A stretch of DNA of 9,907 nucleotides, from the IMG/VR virus record IMGVR_UViG_2534682160_000014; one strand, 5' to 3'. The DNA comes from a virus. Its lineage: Duplodnaviria; Heunggongvirae; Uroviricota; Caudoviricetes. Positions 1,739 through 9,616 of this stretch are shown piece after piece. The notes under the pieces were generated by a model. The model searched no databases and was not told where the DNA came from. It was given only the letters and a program-made list of their open reading frames with translations. Every line of letters begins with the position of its first letter. The first letter of the stretch is position 1. The position numbers and the translations under genes are program-made.

Positions 1739-1944
1739 ATGGAAGCAATCAAAAAAGTCATCTTTCGCCAGGAAGTAAAAAACTTATCCATATTAAGGCA
1801 GACAGCACGCTGCAAAGCATGATCAACGCCGGAGAATTCCCGCAGGGTTTTCGTGTCGGTTTGCGCCGTCGCGGATGGTATGAGGAAGACGTAATCGCAT
1901 GGATGAAAGAACGCGAACAAGAAGCGCGCGGAACGACCGCTTAA
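1739..1944 (+). pseudogene. alpA: AlpA-family (phage transcriptional regulator) gene, apparently disrupted by a 1-nt frameshift in an A6 tract, or a sequencing error at the homopolymer
   Basis: ATG at 1739 with an SD (GAGGT, 1726-1730) opens a frame reading MEAIKKVIFRQEVKN... that stops at TGA 1820-1822. The AlpA-like HTH and C-terminus (…DSTLQSMINAGEFPQGFRVGLRRRGWYEEDVIAWMKERE…) are in the -1 frame, open from 1688 to TAA 1942-1944 but with no ATG/GTG/TTG start upstream of 1819. The frames can be joined at A6 (1777-1782); one extra A gives a continuous 68-aa AlpA-like protein. Confidence 0.55.
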
Positions 1945-1969
1945 CATATATAGGGCAAATGATGAACAT

Positions 1970-1995
1970 AAAAAAAGCGGCCCCGAAATGGAGCC
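1970..1995 (-). terminator. Probable intrinsic terminator for the leftward operon ending at 2066
   Basis: On the minus strand: GGCUCC-AUUUC-GGGGCC hairpin (includes a G-U pair) followed by a U7 run (plus-strand A-run 1970-1976). Lies ~70 nt downstream of the minus-strand stop at 2066-2068. Confidence 0.4.
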
Positions 1996-2065
1996 ACCTT
2001 TCTGAACAATTAACCCGCTGCGCCGTATGTGTCAACAATCATAAGCCTGGGCATGATAACCGCGA

Positions 2066-2269
2066 TCAGGCTGGTGGGCAATTATCTTTCTTGTTGGGGC
2101 CGTATTGTGCTGCCATTTTCATCCGTTCAGAACGTGAATATTTTTTTAGAAACTCATCAAGGACAAAAGCGCATGGTGCGAATCTTTCTGATTCATGCTC
2201 GAGCGCCATATTTTCGTGCTCTCTGTTCGTTTTTTGCGATGGTGTATCGATTGATTCTTTATTGGTCAT
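2066..2269 (-). CDS. Hypothetical small protein (67 aa), second gene of leftward module B; paralog of the 2720..2947 product
   Basis: ORF MTNKES…NCPPA. The start ATG is 9 nt downstream of the conserved 44-nt element. It shares the MTN start and an internal C-A-x-x-x-x-E-x-L block with the 75-aa paralog. Confidence 0.5.
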   Translation of the reverse strand: MTNKESIDTPSQKTNREHENMALEHESERFAPCAFVLDEFLKKYSRSERMKMAAQYGPNKKDNCPPA

Positions 2270-2277
2270 TGTGTGTA

Positions 2278-2321
2278 CCTGTAAAGCAATGCGCCGTAGT
2301 ACCTCACGCCACGGCGCTGAT
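2278..2321 (-). repeat. Conserved 44-nt intergenic hairpin element, copy 1 (between the RHH stop and the small-protein start)
   Basis: mRNA sense: AUCAGCGCCGUGGCGUGAGGUACUACGGCGCAUUGCUUUACAGG. 7-bp stem GCGCCGU/ACGGCGC, 13-nt loop containing GAGGU. Matches 2956-2999 at 43 of 44 positions, with identical placement (begins 5 nt after the upstream stop, ends 9 nt before the downstream ATG). Confidence 0.7.
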
Positions 2322-2326
2322 GTTTT

Positions 2327-2500
2327 TTATCCTTTGGGTTCAATACCGCGTTGCTGTAATTCTTTTCGGAGTACTCGCTTGATCCAGGTGGCTAAAGAAG
2401 TGTCACCGTCTGCTTTCGCTGCCTCTTCAAGTTGTGCTCTGAATTCTTCTGGTAGCCGCATTTGGTATGGAGGCGATCGCTTTTTCAATGGTGTTGACAT
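2327..2500 (-). CDS. Arc/Mnt-like ribbon-helix-helix transcriptional repressor (57 aa)
   Basis: Not in the ORF track (short). Translation from ATG (complement of 2498-2500): MSTPLKKRSPPYQMRLPEEFRAQLEEAAKADGDTSLATWIKRVLRKELQQRGIEPKG. The PYQMRLPEEF beta-strand followed by two helices matches the Arc-type RHH pattern. The start codon sits inside a palindromic operator. Confidence 0.7.
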   Translation of the reverse strand: MSTPLKKRSPPYQMRLPEEFRAQLEEAAKADGDTSLATWIKRVLRKELQQRGIEPKG

Positions 2501-2546
2501 GGTAATTACCCTTAATTACTATAGTTACATGGTAATTACCATTGTA
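2494..2546. promoter_or_regulatory. Divergent promoter/operator region of module B
   Basis: Perfect 10-bp palindrome ggtaattacc at 2501-2510 and 2531-2540 (each preceded by acat), plus a partial copy taattac at 2514-2520. Plus strand: TTGACA (2494-2499) - 17 bp - TACTAT (2517-2522). Minus strand: TTGTTT (2568..2563) - 16 bp - TACAAT (2546..2541). Operators overlap both promoters and the RHH start codon. Confidence 0.6.
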
Positions 2547-2562
2547 CTTACCGTTATACAAA

Positions 2563-2609
2563 AAACAACGCCCCGCAGTGGTGGCTCACATACGGGGCGT
2601 CTAACCAAA
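2563..2609. repeat. Conserved hairpin element M2, copy 1; terminator-like on the minus strand and 5' leader on the plus strand
   Basis: Outer stem cgccccg (2569-2575) / cggggcg (2593-2599), inner stem gtg/cac, variable apical loop. On the minus strand it is followed by UUGUUUUUUGU. The paralogous copy at 3303-3349 has identical stems and a different apical loop. Confidence 0.6.
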
Positions 2610-2680
2610 CCATTAATTGAGGTAACGATTATGGCTATAAAAGAGCATAGCTTACTCTTTATACACACACAAACGCCCCG

Positions 2681-2700
2681 GAAACGGAATAATCCGTTTC
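2681..2700. terminator. Hairpin (8-bp stem gaaacgga / tccgtttc, loop ATAA) just downstream of the 2720..2947 minus-strand gene; possible terminator or attenuator
   Basis: Perfect inverted repeat seen directly. U/G-rich sequence follows on the minus strand and a T-rich stretch on the plus strand. Function not resolved. Confidence 0.35.
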
Positions 2701-2719
2701 ATAGTTCGGTTTTGTGTAC

Positions 2720-2947
2720 TCATCCTGGCGGGCGATTCTTACGGGACTTTAGCCGCCGTGGGCAGCTTGCTAAAAATGCCTCCAACGCGAATAGTCCAGG
2801 TTTCATTTCTATCGGTATTAGTTGGATATTCAGAGGATTAGCCAGTTCGGCTTCAAGGCGAGCACAGGTTTCTAACTGCCTTTGCCGAATGATTTCATCT
2901 TCTTGCGTCTGCGTGTCTTGTATTGGTGATAGTGTGTTGTTGGTCAT
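2720..2947 (-). CDS. Hypothetical small protein (75 aa), second gene of leftward module A; paralog of the 2066..2269 product
   Basis: ORF MTNNTLSPIQ…; the ATG is 9 nt downstream of the conserved 44-nt element copy 2. Confidence 0.5.
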   Translation of the reverse strand: MTNNTLSPIQDTQTQEDEIIRQRQLETCARLEAELANPLNIQLIPIEMKPGLFALEAFLASCPRRLKSRKNRPPG

Positions 2948-2955
2948 GGTACTGC

Positions 2956-2999
2956 CCTGTAAAGCAATGCGCCGTAGTACCTCACACCACGGCGCTGAT
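2956..2999 (-). repeat. Conserved 44-nt intergenic hairpin element, copy 2
   Basis: Differs from copy 1 at a single loop position (GGUGUGAGG vs GGCGUGAGG in mRNA sense). Same spacing to the flanking stop and start codons. Confidence 0.7.
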
Positions 3000-3004
3000 A
3001 GTGA

Positions 3005-3184
3005 TTATTCTGATTCTTTGGCCTTGCGGCGCTGGCGGCGTTTGATCTCGCCTTTTGCTGCCGTAACTAGAAATCCGGCGGTACTTTCGCCAGGTTCTTT
3101 AAGTTGCTCAATATCGGTCATTACCTCATGCGGGATTCTGACCGTTGTCATTTGTGATTTTGCGTTCTTTGCACCTGTTGCCAT
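3005..3184 (-). CDS. Ribbon-helix-helix-like small DNA-binding protein (59 aa), first gene of leftward module A
   Basis: ATG (complement of 3182-3184) preceded by SD AGGAGAA. Translation MATGAKNAKSQMTTVRIPHEVMTDIEQLKEPGESTAGFLVTAAKGEIKRRQRRKAKESE has a beta-strand (TVRIP) plus two-helix pattern and a basic tail. The 220-aa track ORF 3005..3667 is a spurious upstream extension. Confidence 0.6.
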   Translation of the reverse strand: MATGAKNAKSQMTTVRIPHEVMTDIEQLKEPGESTAGFLVTAAKGEIKRRQRRKAKESE

Positions 3185-3204
3185 TTCTGGTTCTCCTGAT
3201 AATC

Positions 3205-3297
3205 GGTGTATTTCAGTATACGCAAAAAAAAAGATAAAAAAAGTCTTGCGGTGTATTTCACTTGAATGTAGATTTAAAAATGAAGGTGAAATACACC
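3205..3297. promoter_or_regulatory. Divergent promoter/operator region of module A
   Basis: ggtgtatttca at 3205-3215; ggtgtatttcac at 3250-3261 with its perfect inverted partner gtgaaatacacc at 3286-3297 (24-bp spacer). Plus strand: TTGCGG (3246-3251) - 17 bp - TAGATT (3269-3274). The operator sequence is different from module B. Confidence 0.55.
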
Positions 3298-3302
3298 TAA
3301 AA

Positions 3303-3349
3303 CAACAACGCCCCGCAGTGATGGGAACACATACGGGGCGTCTAACCAA
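3303..3349. repeat. Conserved hairpin element M2, copy 2
   Basis: cgccccg (3309-3315) / cggggcg (3334-3340) with inner gtg/cac. T-rich on the minus-strand 3' side. Followed on the plus strand by an SD (GAGGAG) and the ATG at 3371. Confidence 0.6.
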
Positions 3350-3370
3350 CAACGTAAACGAGGAGCCGTT

Positions 3371-3571
3371 ATGGTTGCCGTAAATCATACCCCACACCTT
3401 GTACACACACAAACTGCCTTTGTGTGGCGTTTTCTGGCACTGAGTGCCGGAGAATCTCAAATCATCCACGTAACCGCCTGGACGGAACGCGAAGCGCGTA
3501 ACCGTTGCCCGTCCGGTTGTGTTGCTGTATTTGCCGCCCGTATTCGCCAGGGGGAAACCTATGCACAATAA
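3371..3571 (+). CDS. Possible leader ORF (66 aa) at the head of the rightward operon
   Basis: ATG with a good SD. The N-terminus MVAVNHTPHLVHTQT parallels MAIKEHSLLFIHTQT at the equivalent site in module B (ATG 2631). The rest has no recognisable features and overlaps the next gene's start. Coding status uncertain. Confidence 0.3.
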   Translation: MVAVNHTPHLVHTQTAFVWRFLALSAGESQIIHVTAWTEREARNRCPSGCVAVFAARIRQGETYAQ

Positions 3572-4254: not shown

Positions 4255-4554
4255 ATGAAACTTAAATATTCTGGCTTAACTGCCAGTGGCAACACTCACC
4301 CTAAATTTACGCGCGGTGATATTTACCGCGACCAGTACGGCGGCACGGTAATGATTAAGGGCGTGGCGGGACGGTGCGTAACTTACCGCCGTGAAGGTTA
4401 CGAATATGATTGCGTGATGCCTGTTTATCAGTTCCGGCGTGATTTTTCTCTGGTACAGACCGCGCCGCATAACGTGCCCACCAGCAACGCCAGCGCACGG
4501 GCAAACATCCAGAAGCTGAAAACCATGATTAACGGATTCAGGGGTAAAAAATGA
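4255..4554 (+). CDS. Hypothetical protein (99 aa)
   Basis: ATG 4255 with upstream GGAGAA. The stop overlaps the rep start (ATGA at 4551-4554), indicating translational coupling. Confidence 0.55.
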   Translation: MKLKYSGLTASGNTHPKFTRGDIYRDQYGGTVMIKGVAGRCVTYRREGYEYDCVMPVYQFRRDFSLVQTAPHNVPTSNASARANIQKLKTMINGFRGKK

Positions 4555-5960
4555 AACTGGCACCGAACGTAAAACGATTACCGAAAGATAAATACACCGA
4601 TGCGATTATTTTTGCGGGTATTGATGCTCATTCATTCGCAGAGCATTACATCATTGCACAGGCCAAAAAAGCAGGCGATCCAGTCCCTCCCGTTTATCTG
4701 GGGCGTTATCAGTTAAGCGAACTGGATAACCTCCAGATTGTTGATGATGGGCGATACAGGGCGACGGTGATACGTGCCGGAAATATTGAAGAGCCGCAGC
4801 TGTTAACCATCGCCACGAAACTGGCGATCGCCGGAGTCCAGGAGGCGCGGCTACTTTCTGAAAATTTAGAATTGCTGGAGGAATGGAGCGACCAGCTTCC
4901 ACGGCTTAGGGAGGCATGGGAACGCGGGGAAAGCCTGGTCATGAAAAAAATCCCCCAGCGAAAAACCAAGCTACCGATGAGCGTTGGATCTACCGGATAC
5001 GACACACAGCTTGATTACGTGGTAAAGGGGATTATTCCGGCATCGTCGCTTTGCAGCATATACGGGGCGAGCGGTTCCTATAAATCATTCCTTGCCGGAT
5101 CGTGGGCGTGTCACGTTTCCACGGGCCGCCAGTGGGGAGGCCGCAGGGTGGCGCATGGCGCTGTTCTCTATGTGGTTGGTGAAGGCGGTATAGGCGTTCC
5201 GCGTCGTGTAAAAGCCTGGGAGGTTGTGCACGATGAGCAGGTGAAAAATCTGTATCTGGTAAACCGTCCCATCTTTCCGGCTGCCCCGCTTGATATTGAT
5301 GAAATGGTTATCGCTGCCAGCCAGGTGGAGCGGGAAACGGGTAAACCGGTCCGAATGATTATTCTGGATACGCTGGCGCGTTGCTTTGGCGGCAATGATG
5401 AAAATGATTCCCGTGATATGGGGGCGTTTATCCGTGGGTGTGACGAACTGAAACGGCGCACAGGGGCCACGGTGCTGGTGGTTCACCATTCCGGCAAGGA
5501 TGAGACGAAAGGCGCGCGCGGTTCCAGTGCATTTCGTGCATCACTGGATGCTGAATACCGGATACGCAGGGAGGACGCAGGAAGCGAAGCGCTGGTTATC
5601 TCATGCACCAAAATGAAGGACGCGGAGGAACTCAAAGAAGCCGCATATGACTTACGCGTGGTGGAGCTTTTTACCGACGCTGACGGTGAGTTAATCACGT
5701 CGCTGGTGGTGGTGGATAAGCCGCGCCCTCCCGTTGAACTGGAGCGCATCGAGGAGGCAGGGAACAAGACGGAGAATCACGCCGCGCTATGGCAGTGCAT
5801 CAGAACACGAACAGCACACGGGGAGGCGTGCACTATCGCCCTTCTCCGCGACGATATGAAAAAGCTGGGGTATGAGATGAAGCACTTCCGGCGCTGGCTG
5901 TACAAGCTGGAAAATGATGGCGTAATCGTTATTGACGGTGATGACGTGCGCCCGCTGTAA
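4551..5960 (+). CDS. Replication initiator / helicase-like ATPase (RepA / AAA_25-like, RecA-fold) of the island
   Basis: 469 aa. P-loop-like GASGSYKS (5064-5087), and HHSGKDETKGARGSSAF, a motif typical of RepA/DnaB-like AAA_25 ATPases. An iteron array starts immediately downstream of the stop. Confidence 0.75.
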   Translation: MKLAPNVKRLPKDKYTDAIIFAGIDAHSFAEHYIIAQAKKAGDPVPPVYLGRYQLSELDNLQIVDDGRYRATVIRAGNIEEPQLLTIATKLAIAGVQEARLLSENLELLEEWSDQLPRLREAWERGESLVMKKIPQRKTKLPMSVGSTGYDTQLDYVVKGIIPASSLCSIYGASGSYKSFLAGSWACHVSTGRQWGGRRVAHGAVLYVVGEGGIGVPRRVKAWEVVHDEQVKNLYLVNRPIFPAAPLDIDEMVIAASQVERETGKPVRMIILDTLARCFGGNDENDSRDMGAFIRGCDELKRRTGATVLVVHHSGKDETKGARGSSAFRASLDAEYRIRREDAGSEALVISCTKMKDAEELKEAAYDLRVVELFTDADGELITSLVVVDKPRPPVELERIEEAGNKTENHAALWQCIRTRTAHGEACTIALLRDDMKKLGYEMKHFRRWLYKLENDGVIVIDGDDVRPL

Positions 5961-6165
5961 AAAGTGGGGAGTAAAAGTGGGGAGAGTGGGGGATTTAACA
6001 AAATTGAAACATAATTACCCACTTTCCCACCTGTATACACCCAAAAAAGTGGGGAGTAAAAAACATATTGAAAAACATAACGTTAGAATCACAAAAAAAA
6101 GAGGTGGGGAGACGGTGGGTAATTTCAAAAAGTGGGGAGCAAAAGTGGGGAGTAGTGGGGAATGA
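5960..6165 (+). repeat. Iteron-type replication origin (ori)
   Basis: Eight or more direct copies of (A)AAAGTGGGGAG and variants at about 5963, 5976, 5985, 6048, 6103, 6131, 6145 and 6154; one inverted partial copy (cccacttt, 6018-6025); AT-rich spacers at 6001-6017 and 6057-6100. Positioned directly 3' of rep. Confidence 0.75.
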
Positions 6166-6820: not shown

Positions 6821-6828
6821 ACATCATG

Positions 6829-6851
6829 GCCGGAGAAAATCCGGCTTTTTT
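6829..6851 (+). terminator. Rho-independent terminator after ssb
   Basis: gccgg-agaaaat-ccggc hairpin followed by T6 (6846-6851). Confidence 0.8.
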
Positions 6852-6856
6852 GTAGG

Positions 6857-6926
6857 TACTCCTGGTGGGGGTGGCCTGTCCACGGGGCGGGAGGGCGCGG
6901 AAAAAGGCGCATTTTTTGATTTTTAT
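6857..6926 (+). repeat. Conserved G-rich repeat R, copy 1 (immediately after the terminator)
   Basis: tactcctggtgggggtggcctgtccacggggcgggagggcgcggaaaaaggcgcattttttgatttttat. About 85% identical over ~65 bp to 9393-9460, at the same distance from the preceding stop codon. Confidence 0.7.
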
Positions 6927-7030
6927 GGCACCATCACCACCACTATAAGCTATTGATATATTGAGAAATAAAAATTTTTAGTGTCGGATCAGGTTGTTTT
7001 TGTTCATCGCTGGAACGTTCCCGAAAACAT

Positions 7031-7474: not shown

Positions 7475-8070
7475 AAACATGGTTTTCCATTAAGGCTATG
7501 GCAGATGTTGTCTATGTGCGTATTTATGACGAGATCGGCGGGTACGGTGTAAAAGCATCGGCACTTACTGACGAGATCAACGCGTGTGGTAATGCGTCTG
7601 AAATCCATCTTCGCATCCATTCACCTGGTGGCGACATCTTTGAAGGGCTGGCTATCTATAACGCCCTGAAAAATCATCCGGCAAAGAAAATTGTACACAT
7701 TGAAGGCATGGCGGCTTCTATGGCCTCGCTTATTGCCATGTGTGGCGATCACATCGTTATGCCTGAAAACGCGATGATGATGATACATGCCCCCCGTGGT
7801 GTTACTGCCGGAGTGTCGGGCGACGTTCGCCGCTTTGCTGACCTGATGGACAAGCTGGGCGACACGATGGCGGAAACCTACGCCGGAAGAACGGGCAGGA
7901 GCAAACAGGAGATCACCTCAATGATGGAGGCGGAAACCTGGATGGATGGCAATGAGTGTAAGGCTAACGGCTTCGCAGATGAGGTTATACCCGCGATTAC
8001 AGCAATGGCCCGAATTGAATCAAAACGAATCGGAGATTTTTCAAATATGCCGGAAAAATTAAAAGCATGA
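7471..8070 (+). CDS. ClpP-like (S14 family) serine protease; prohead maturation protease
   Basis: 199 aa with ClpP-type motifs: HSPGGDIFEGLAIYNAL, catalytic Ser context GMAASMASLIAM, His context MMMIHAPRG. Immediately precedes the capsid gene with an ATGA overlap. Confidence 0.88.
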   Translation: MKTWFSIKAMADVVYVRIYDEIGGYGVKASALTDEINACGNASEIHLRIHSPGGDIFEGLAIYNALKNHPAKKIVHIEGMAASMASLIAMCGDHIVMPENAMMMIHAPRGVTAGVSGDVRRFADLMDKLGDTMAETYAGRTGRSKQEITSMMEAETWMDGNECKANGFADEVIPAITAMARIESKRIGDFSNMPEKLKA

Positions 8071-9359
8071 TCAGCCAGAAAACTGGCAGTGGCGAACAGG
8101 AACGACTTAACGGAATCCGTGAATTGTTTGGCACCTTCAACGGAAGATATAACGACCTGGCTATAAGTTGTCTTGCGGATTCAGAATGTAGCGTTGAGAA
8201 TGCACGCGAACGCCTTTTACTCGCTATGGGTAAAGAATCAACGCCAACAAACAAAACCACCCCCGCAAATCTTTACTACGCGTACACGGGTAACGGCAAT
8301 ATAACCGGCGATGCCATGCGTCAGGGGCTTAATGCGCGTCTTGGTCACGAACGGGCCGAACGCGGTAATCCTTACGCCATGATGAGCCTTTTCGATATGG
8401 CACAGGCATCATTAACCCATCGTGGTATAAGCACGGGCAGCTACAGCACACGCTCGCAGATAGTAAACGCGGCATTCACCCACAGCAGCAGCGATTTTAC
8501 CGATATCCTTGCTGGTGGCGCTGAAAAATCAGTGCTTGCAGGCTGGGAGCACAGCGGCGAAACATTCCGCCAGTGGACGAAAAAAGGTTCCCTTTCAAAC
8601 TTCCGGGAAGCCCGCCGCGTTGGTATGAATGGCTTCTCAACGTTAAACAAAGTGCCGGAAGGGGCAGAATATAAATACATCACCACCAGCGATCGCGGTG
8701 AACCCATCGCGCTGGCTACTTACGGGAATATTTTCAGCATTACCCGCCAGGCGATAATCAATGATGACCTTGATCAGTTATCAACGGTGCCAATGGCTAT
8801 GGGCCGTGCAGCATCAAGAACGGTGGGAAATCTGGTTAATCTGATGCTTACAAGCAACGTAAAACTTTCTGACGGAATAACGCTGTTTGACAAAAAACAC
8901 AGCAACCTGATTGAAGCAGGACTGACAACACCGGGACTTAGTGCAGCACGTCACCTGATGCGCACACAGAAGGACAAAAATGGCGAAGTGCTGAATATTG
9001 CGCCTAAATTCCTTTTAGTTCCGGCAGCACTGGAAGATCGCGCGTTGCAGATGATTAACTCAACCGCACCTTTCGGGGCTGATAAAAACAGCGGGATCTT
9101 TAACCCGTATCACAAGCTACTTGATATCATCGTCGATCCCCGCCTTGATGATATCAGCGAAAAACAATGGTACATGCTTTCCGCACAGGGAACGGACACA
9201 ATCGAGGTGGCTTATCTTGATGGCAATGACGAGCCTTACCTTGAACAGCAGGAAGGTTTTATCGTTGACGGCGTGGCCTGGAAAGTCCGTATTGATGCAG
9301 GTGTGGCAGCTCTGGATTATCGCGGTATGGTCAAATCAGGCGGGACAGATTCACTATGA
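8067..9359 (+). CDS. Major capsid protein, HK97-fold family (probably with N-terminal delta/scaffold-like region)
   Basis: 430 aa, directly downstream of and overlapping the prohead protease gene, which is the usual protease-capsid order in HK97-like head modules. Size and position support the call; the fold assignment is by family knowledge, not a search. Confidence 0.75.
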   Translation: MISQKTGSGEQERLNGIRELFGTFNGRYNDLAISCLADSECSVENARERLLLAMGKESTPTNKTTPANLYYAYTGNGNITGDAMRQGLNARLGHERAERGNPYAMMSLFDMAQASLTHRGISTGSYSTRSQIVNAAFTHSSSDFTDILAGGAEKSVLAGWEHSGETFRQWTKKGSLSNFREARRVGMNGFSTLNKVPEGAEYKYITTSDRGEPIALATYGNIFSITRQAIINDDLDQLSTVPMAMGRAASRTVGNLVNLMLTSNVKLSDGITLFDKKHSNLIEAGLTTPGLSAARHLMRTQKDKNGEVLNIAPKFLLVPAALEDRALQMINSTAPFGADKNSGIFNPYHKLLDIIVDPRLDDISEKQWYMLSAQGTDTIEVAYLDGNDEPYLEQQEGFIVDGVAWKVRIDAGVAALDYRGMVKSGGTDSL

Positions 9360-9365
9360 CAACAA

Positions 9366-9387
9366 GGCGGCACCAGCCGCCTTTTTT
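9366..9387 (+). terminator. Rho-independent terminator after the capsid gene
   Basis: ggcggc-acca-gccgcc hairpin followed by T6 (9382-9387). Confidence 0.8.
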
Positions 9388-9392
9388 GCGGG

Positions 9393-9460
9393 TCCTCCTG
9401 GTGGGGTGGGCCTGAACACGGGGCGGGCGGCGCGGAAAAAAGCGCATTTTTGTGATTTTA
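9393..9460 (+). repeat. Conserved G-rich repeat R, copy 2
   Basis: tcctcctggtggggtgggcctgaacacggggcgggcggcgcggaaaaaagcgcatttttgtgatttta; followed by a (CAT)4 run at 9466-9477. Confidence 0.7.
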
Positions 9461-9616
9461 TCGTCATCATCATCATGTGTGTAACCTGTTGTTTTTAATG
9501 TGGTTGATGCAAAAAAGATGATGATTGCGGTTAATTTTTGTTCGACATCTTTTAGCGTGACAGATTCTTTACAAAAAATCTGAGCTTGTTTTCTTCACCA
9601 GCGCGATGGGGGCACA

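Follow-up and report, generated by a model that had tools for sequence, protein, structure and literature searches.

The window analysed here, a 9,907-nucleotide (nt) stretch of a caudoviricete record in IMG/VR (IMGVR_UViG_2534682160_000014), carries two copies of a hairpin, M2, each lying ahead of the start of an icd-like gene. The question raised by this locus is what M2 is for and on which strand it acts. A sequence-only reading of the window had already noticed both copies and had proposed that M2 might insulate leftward promoters or serve in the 5' leader of a rightward mRNA. We now think it probable, if far from certain, that M2 is the terminator stem-loop of a leftward cis-antisense RNA of approximately 80 nt directed against the ribosome-binding site of the icd-like gene. 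That the constraint lies on the minus strand we regard as settled; we infer that the promoter fires, that transcription terminates at M2 and that icd is repressed by the RNA.

Both copies were found where the sequence-only reading had seen them, with the outer CGCCCCG/CGGGGCG and inner GTG/CAC stems it had described. Copy A (2569-2599) reads CGCCCCG CAGTG GTGGCT CACATA CGGGGCG and copy B (3309-3340) reads CGCCCCG CAGTG ATGGGAA CACATA CGGGGCG, so that the apical loops are indeed unlike in sequence and length. A pattern containing both outer arms matches exactly two sites in the window and none in 200 dinucleotide shuffles. M2 and its flanks (AACAACG...GTCTAACCAA) are near-identical between the two tandem modules, A and B, in which the copies lie and which have otherwise diverged; the whole aligned stretch averages 75% identity.

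When folded, each copy forms a hairpin on either strand, and a better one on the minus strand. The minus-strand stem-loop of copy A (2567-2601), which would be the terminator-type stem-loop (SL2) of a predicted antisense RNA A, has a 6-nt loop and a folding energy of -23.8 kcal/mol (z -4.1). That of copy B (3307-3342), the corresponding SL2 of a predicted antisense RNA B, has 11 + 3 base pairs (bp), one bulged U and a 7-nt loop, at -23.3 kcal/mol (z -4.5). On the plus strand both copies fold at -18.4 kcal/mol, with z of -2.7 for A and -3.5 for B. The U-rich run noted earlier 3' of each copy on the minus strand is real, being UUGUUUUUUGU for copy A, with a U-tract GUUUUUUGU at 2558-2566, and UUGUUGUUUUAGG for copy B (a tract also given as UUGUUGUUUU), with a U-rich tract UGUUGUUUU at 3298-3306. 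Past M2 on the plus strand the sequence is CUAACCAAC, and a U-tract is absent. Both hallmarks of an intrinsic terminator, a stable G+C-rich stem-loop and a U-rich tract directly 3' of it on the same strand, are therefore found on the minus strand.

Homologous loci were gathered through searches with the Icd-like protein and a DNA-pattern scan added more, giving approximately 280 loci examined in all. A search of genome contigs with the Icd-like protein yielded two loci only, and an alignment-based viral scan returned the same 80 loci again; the diversity was obtained by querying with a distant homologue and with the DNA pattern. Since the Icd-like protein was the handle for collection, conservation of the hairpin is a result rather than a selection criterion. 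Across these loci, window-type Icd-like genes always have a hairpin 25-45 nt 5' of the Shine-Dalgarno (SD) sequence, flanked on the plus strand by an A-rich run and a conserved TCTAACCA. Approximately 25-30 distinct stem sequences occupy this one position, with ACGCCCCG/CGGGGCGT in some loci versus AAGCCCCG/CGGGGCTT in others, GTG/CAC versus CTG/CAG, and wholly different inner helices in L003, L048, L136, L186, L232, and L238. In a minus-strand alignment of 25 sequences, 94.2% of the cells are paired and 8 of the 14 pairs show compensatory double changes. None of 500 shuffles attained the observed pairing or covariation values, and slid registers pair only 32-52%. A Salmonella Senftenberg island of matching layout adds a further C-G to U-A compensation. 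The retention of pairing together with these compensatory changes indicates that the structure of M2 is under selection, which strongly supports the earlier suggestion, made from the two copies in the window, of a structural rather than purely sequence constraint.

The same variants identify the strand. Over the 25 sequences the minus strand forms 327 bp including 43 G·U pairs, versus 280 bp including 12 G·U pairs on the plus strand. Departures from Watson-Crick pairing consistently take the form of G·U on the minus strand and hence of C·A mismatches on the plus strand. Stability favors the minus strand in 23 of the 25 variants and in 41 of 44 flanked sequences. Among the tabulated M2-type variants a U-rich tail follows the stem on the minus strand only; most of these tails are T-runs and a few are weakly U-rich. 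The G·U/C·A asymmetry, the stabilities and the U-tract together single out the minus strand. On these sequence grounds M2 is a leftward Rho-independent terminator-type hairpin, and is neither a leader structure of the plus strand nor a terminator of the rightward operon.

The segment between M2 and icd codon 4 also forms a helix, SL1, on the minus strand only. In predicted RNA B, SL1 (3347-3380, minus strand) pairs CGGCAAC with GUUGUUG and, inside this, ACGG with CGUU around an anti-SD CUCCUC (z -2.0 on the minus strand, -0.2 on the plus strand), and is complementary to the SD, the ATG and codons 2-4 of icd. In predicted RNA A (2602-2637, minus strand) UAGCCAUAAUCGUUAC pairs with AAUGGUUUGGUUA, G·U pairs included, and the anti-SD CCUC lies in the loop (z -3.3 minus, -1.3 plus). 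The common pattern is a pairing between UUGGUUAG, which is conserved and complementary to TCTAACCAA, and the complement of the start-codon or SD region, with the anti-SD in or beside the loop. SL1 was assessed by folding each leader type separately. For seven leader types, both window copies and Salmonella included, z ranged from -1.8 to -4.0 for the minus strand and from -0.2 to -1.3 for the plus strand, and the mean energy of 32 distinct leaders was -11.5 versus -5.9 kcal/mol. In the V5 family (48 sequences) 98.9% of SL1 is paired; two of its pairs are near-invariant as G·U, one alternates between A-U and G·U (33/15) and one is compensatory (AU 44, CG 2, UA 2).

The complete predicted RNAs run on the minus strand from approximately 3377 to 3300 (B) and from approximately 2637 to 2560 (A). 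They fold at -34 kcal/mol each (z -3.2 and -5.0), and the plus strand at -26.6 and -23.9 kcal/mol. A covariance model of the SL1 core plus SL2, R1, finds two copies in the window, both on the minus strand, at 3295-3380 (87.8 bits) and 2555-2640 (75.4 bits). Elsewhere it finds one copy each in Sp7, a prophage-like element of Escherichia coli O157:H7 Sakai, in strain 10 and Salmonella (L161, L162), and in L091. Conserved structure specific to the antisense strand, as expected of a cis-encoded antisense small RNA, is thus seen for SL2, for SL1 and for the RNA as a whole.

The R1 model also gave weak matches on both strands of L164 at 2246-2335 (Sakai Sp6, ECs_1556/ECs_1557), with 18 bits (E 0.037) and 16 bits (E 0.1). 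This site lies between the regulator and antirepressor genes of a lambdoid prophage and is probably just a terminator.

A candidate promoter for the leftward RNA lies within the first codons of icd. For module B we predict a -10 hexamer, TATGAT, at 3384-3389 on the minus strand (the complement of codons N5-H6-T7), which keeps a fixed distance in M2-linked icd genes. A weakly matching -35 hexamer, TTGTGT, is predicted 17 nt 5' of it at 3407-3412 (the complement of codons H12-T13-Q14). For module A the predicted minus-strand hexamers are TATGCT at 2644-2649, with the same 10-nt spacing to the complement of the ATG as TATGAT of module B, and TTGTGT at 2667-2672, again with a 17-nt spacer. The hexamers are conserved between the modules and the spacer differs. 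Every M2-linked icd gene has a -10-like hexamer at a constant distance, 7-8 nt upstream of SL1; it is TATGCT without a recognizable -35 in Salmonella and an extended -10 (TGnTATGAT) in the V5 type. In the 48 distinct V5-type sequences TG at -15/-14, TA at -12/-11 and T at -7 are invariant, while positions -13, -10, -9, and -8 vary, the forms observed being TGGTATGAT, TGGTATAAT, TGGTATAGT, TGATATGAT, TGGTAATAT, and TGTTACGAT. Among these constant bases are those at the third positions of icd codons 4 and 5, T and C in every sequence, although the amino acids encoded there differ (H/Y/I/R and T/I/N). Fixed third positions with varying residues are the reverse of protein constraint, and are as expected of a promoter on the opposite strand. 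The icd paralogues that are preceded by a canonical C4 RNA are without M2, without these N-terminal codons and without the -10 motif. Module A, where the body of icd has been lost, retains the predicted promoter, SL1, and M2.

How much of this could be explained without an antisense RNA? M2 could be an intrinsic terminator of leftward transcription acting purely as an insulator, halting stray antisense transcription or read-through before it reaches the leftward repressor promoter, with copy A also ending the leftward operon of module B and no discrete RNA being made. We give this a minority share of belief, as a possible explanation but a clearly less probable one. The solid terminator features on the minus strand would suit it equally well, leftward ribbon-helix-helix (RHH) genes lie just beyond M2 in every island examined, including O157 Sp7, where they are unannotated, and copy A lies downstream of the leftward genes at 3005-3184 and 2720-2947. 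In single-module islands, however, all genes to the right of M2 are rightward, so that there is no leftward gene in need of a terminator there. Insulation would also leave unexplained the minus-strand-specific SL1 that abuts M2 and the promoter-type conservation of TG, TA, and T at third codon positions approximately 80 nt upstream. The leftward insulator proposed in the sequence-only reading thus stands as a minus-strand terminator, and is incomplete as mere insulation. Islands without leftward genes were sought in O157 Sp7 and Salmonella in order to separate an insulator from an antisense RNA, but the leftward operon proved to be present after all. The comparison does not discriminate because an annotated plus-strand open reading frame (ORF) of 247 amino acids (aa) there overlaps unannotated leftward RHH genes.

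The other proposal of the sequence-only reading, a stem-loop in the 5' leader of the rightward mRNA that stabilizes the transcript or serves as a binding or attenuation element before the icd SD, seems to us unlikely. Its positional basis is correct, as M2 does lie between a rightward promoter (2494-2522) and an SD and ATG (starts at 2631 and 3371), the plus strand still folds, and the conserved TCTAACCA comes next after M2. It is the function that does not follow, since the variants gather C·A mismatches when read on the plus strand, the stability and the U-tract both favor the minus strand, and the plus-strand leader as a whole is no better structured than shuffles (z -0.2 to -1.3). We consider a DNA-level element, whether a palindromic protein site, a recombination junction of mosaic modules or a hairpin of single-stranded DNA, very improbable. 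M2 does sit exactly where an operator region of high variability gives way to the conserved icd leader, and its inner and outer stem parts have been reshuffled among islands. What is conserved is nevertheless the pairing and not the stem sequence, and tolerance of G·U on one strand next to a U-tract fits RNA, whereas a duplex-DNA site would give no strand asymmetry. Least credible of all is that M2 is a diverged sense-strand immunity RNA of the P1 C4 or P4 CI kind, or a seqA/isrK partner. It occupies an analogous place upstream of an icd-like gene, and related islands carry C4 and isrK, but M2 has half their size and is constrained on the other strand. An Rfam search of the window found no family at M2 even at E<=10, C4 (RF01695) and isrK (RF01394) included, and the identity was rejected; the controls L002, L086, and L091, related loci that carry these RNAs elsewhere, score 72-78 bits for C4 and 62-65 bits for isrK.

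Several observations weigh against a terminated antisense RNA. The predicted promoter B (TTGTGT-17-TATGAT) is weak, matching consensus at 8 of 12 positions, below the 9/12 threshold of a generic promoter and terminator scan of the window. That scan reported neither the antisense promoter nor M2, which escaped it because, with the bulge, more than 8 nt are enclosed by the uninterrupted stem. The N-terminus of Icd could account for part of the conservation of the -10 and -35 hexamers. Covariation in SL1 is modest, with a single compensatory pair within V5 and several single variants that weaken the helix, and when all leader types are given to RNAalifold together no more than a 3-bp SL1 core is recovered, because the leader types are not alignable with each other. 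The homologous sequences are related and mosaic, so that the counts given above overstate the number of independent events. Finally, the Hfq-crosslinking (Hfq-CRAC) peaks listed for O157:H7 Sakai include none in Sp7, which carries the element. As cis-antisense RNAs are often independent of Hfq, the missing peak counts weakly. The orphan Hfq-site list (Table S2) spans both core and island sites, and an abundant Hfq-bound RNA might have shown there.

If M2 does end an antisense RNA, the control of icd could work as follows. A promoter inside icd codons 5-15, composed of the -10 TATGAT or TATGCT with the weak -35 TTGTGT, or of an extended -10 in other islands, would produce a leftward RNA of approximately 80 nt with its 5' end near the complement of the start codon. 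SL1 would present or flank the anti-SD sequence, and M2 with its U-tract would, judging by its anatomy, stop the RNA short of the leftward repressor promoter. The rightward mRNA would begin 5' of M2, in module A from TTGACA-17-TACTAT at 2494-2522, and with such a start the transcript contains the complete complementary region. Pairing of the two RNAs would then hide the icd SD and AUG and block translation of the Icd-like protein; by the example of λ OOP, P22 sar, and type I antitoxins, the duplex would probably also be cleaved, with polar effects on the replication genes downstream. The island would in this way be kept quiet when the rightward promoter leaks, and on induction, transcription from the strong rightward promoter would pass across the antisense promoter and disturb it.

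The predicted target is the gene at 3371-3571 on the plus strand, which the sequence-only reading had left unnamed and which encodes a 66-aa Icd-like protein of module B (NCBIfam NF033153, phage_ICD_like, 64.4 bits against a cut-off of 25). NF033153 is described as "host cell division inhibitor Icd-like", and 113 homologues carry the name Icd-like. Its leader, SD, and start codon all lie within the complement of predicted RNA B. Copy A precedes only a truncated remnant at 2631-2675 on the plus strand (MAIKEHSLLFIHTQT), which holds the first 15 codons. The icd homology stops past codon 15, and the frame continues without a stop to 3383.

By its gene layout the window is an enterobacterial phage-satellite island resembling phage-inducible chromosomal islands (PICIs) of the capsid-forming type. 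It begins with an integrase gene (1-1242) and an AlpA-type gene (1739-1944). The two tandem switch modules (2066-2675 and 2720-3412) lie between the AlpA-type gene and a set of small ORFs, followed by a DUF4222 gene and a RepA/AAA_25 helicase-primase gene (4551-5960). Further rightward are probable iterons, ssb, a ClpP-like protease gene, and a 430-aa ORF (8067-9359) that we read as a putative HK97-type capsid gene. A near-identical island adjoins tRNA-Pro and yejM in E. coli strain 10, and 24 E. coli genomes cover at least 80% of the tandem-module region. Sp7 is a related island and is, we assume, the Sakai counterpart of EcCIEDL933, which has been described as the prototype capsid-forming PICI.

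Each module contains one or more leftward RHH genes of the Arc/YlcI-YnfO type, a hairpin M1, a set of operators, M2, and the start of icd. The operator sets differ, with ACATGGTAATTACC repeats in one module and GGTGTATTTCAC repeats in the other. In module B the minus-strand gene at 3005-3184 belongs to the YlcI/YnfO family of Arc-like RHH proteins (NF041551, 62.1 bits), and its module A counterpart at 2327-2500 (minus strand) has weak Arc and YlcI matches only. A 75-aa gene lies at 2720-2947, also on the minus strand. The rightward promoter of module A (TTGACA-17-TACTAT, 2494-2522, plus strand) lies between ACATGGTAATTACC operator repeats and matches consensus at 10 of 12 positions. It would run antisense across the repressor operon of module B, perhaps as a double lock or an anti-repression device.

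Hairpin M1 (the GCGCCGTGG..CCACGGCGC region; 2290-2320 and 2969-2995, minus strand) immediately follows the stop of each leftward RHH gene. Between the modules it shows 83% conservation over 75 nt, and its minus strand was flagged as terminator-like; L012 carries it too, behind the repressor gene. Another terminator-like hairpin, GAAACGGATTATTCCGTTTC followed by CGGGGCGTTTGTGTG (2676-2701, minus strand), is found just past the stop of the 2720-2947 gene and abuts the predicted -35 of antisense promoter A. A plus-strand ORF of 494 aa (1899-3383) runs antisense through the leftward RHH genes. Its 247-aa O157:H7 equivalent (L163 2414-3157; Sakai ECs_1576), which overlaps the unannotated leftward homologues of the window genes at 2327-2500 and 2066-2269, is annotated as a hypothetical protein and has no Pfam match; that annotation is probably spurious.

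Outside the switch region, the AlpA-type gene is split into ORFs of 27 and 41 aa by a run of six A at approximately 1777-1782. The strain 10 island, otherwise 99% identical, has seven A and an intact 68-aa gene, and the split means either that the gene is a frameshifted pseudogene or that the homopolymer was missequenced. AlpA has been reported to be required for the induction of such islands. Direct repeats of the AAAGTGGGGAG type cluster at 5960-6160, downstream of the helicase-primase gene, and are probably the iterons of a replication origin. An intergenic element of approximately 100 nt occurs in two copies, after ssb (6826-6935) and after the putative capsid gene (9362-9475), and consists of a terminator-like hairpin followed by GGTaCTCCTGGTGGGG..CACGGGGCGGG..GCGCGGAAAAAgGCGCATTTTT. 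Its copies have 82% mean column identity over 197 columns, with long identical runs in the first 110 or so, and it may be a repeated regulatory or late-promoter region.

The M2 element is widespread. Of 5426 complete E. coli genomes, 1189 have a match to its 97-nt form, and in 731 of these the match spans at least 80% of that length; O157:H7 Sp7 carries the element, which occurs in Salmonella as well. It was also found in three records labeled as plasmids, one of them from Salmonella, and had no match in the deposited phage collection, P4 included. RefSeq has no RNA annotated at the M2 position in the genomes examined, which included strain 10 and O157:H7. Phage satellites such as PICIs, capsid-forming PICIs, and P4-like elements are major vehicles of gene transfer in Enterobacteriaceae, and their silence and induction are partly understood in terms of AlpA, protein repressors, and, in some islands, C4/CI RNAs. 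An antisense RNA ending at M2, if it exists, would be an unannotated regulator at the first gene of the induction operon and would account for the synonymous-site constraint in the first codons of Icd-like genes. A broader proposal, which we offer tentatively and hold with a good deal more doubt than belief, is that such RNAs make up a new family of cis-antisense "immunity" RNAs, widespread among the phage satellites of enterobacteria (PICIs, capsid-forming PICIs, and P4-like elements). They would be a third layer of control beside protein repressors and C4/CI, gating icd translation and, by polarity, the replication operon. The hypervariable terminator loop and SL1 would provide specificity for each island, so that the two modules of the window would encode two different RNAs.

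Among known regulators of satellites and temperate phages, C4 and CI with their a/b or seqA (isrK) targets (RF01695, RF01394, RF03163) likewise control an icd-type first gene at the RNA level in P1, P4, and PICI-type elements. Whereas C4 and CI arise by processing of the sense transcript and work in trans by pairing between loop and target, the M2 RNA is predicted to be a perfectly complementary cis-antisense RNA from the opposite strand. Related loci contain both kinds, in the order M2, icd1, isrK, C4, icd2. In the P4-like relatives (L091 1057-1976; L086; L002) M2-icd1 is followed by isrK (seqA-like), C4, a second icd-like gene, a second C4, and an ash-like gene, and up to three RNA-level controls are stacked in one leader. 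The literature on Gram-negative PICIs names immunity RNAs of the C4 and isrK types (PMC10111431); neither that paper nor the capsid-forming PICI and EcCIMP1 papers mention the M2 element.

As a cis-antisense small RNA with an intrinsic terminator, the predicted RNA would be expected to work in the manner of λ OOP, a type I antitoxin, or P22 sar, and it covers the icd SD and AUG by construction. A review that lists P22 sar among antisense RNAs describes λ OOP as an antisense RNA of 77 nt that has a promoter of its own, ends at an intrinsic terminator and works on an early regulatory mRNA by way of a duplex and RNase III (PMC5415839). The M2 RNA would resemble OOP in being short and in having its own promoter and intrinsic terminator, but OOP overlaps the 3' end of cII and not a ribosome-binding site, and the two are not homologous. 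Type I toxin-antitoxin systems such as hok/sok and ibs/sib offer the parallel of a small, potentially toxic gene whose translation-initiation region is covered by a structured antisense RNA with a terminator hairpin. They differ in that the Icd-like gene heads a long operon and does not form a module of its own, and its toxicity is assumed from the family name only. P22 sar, encoded in immI, is a small antisense RNA over the ribosome-binding region of ant, with an intrinsic terminator, in a region that is also under the control of Arc-type repressors. The predicted M2 RNA would likewise be a short cis-antisense RNA of a temperate mobile element, transcribed from a promoter in or next to its target, covering the ribosome-binding site of a gene that is presumably harmful if expressed at the wrong time and ending at an intrinsic terminator, and here too Arc-type RHH repressors control the same region. 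No sequence or Rfam kinship was found between the two, and the target of sar is an antirepressor gene, whereas that of the M2 RNA would be the Icd-like gene that opens the replication operon of a satellite.

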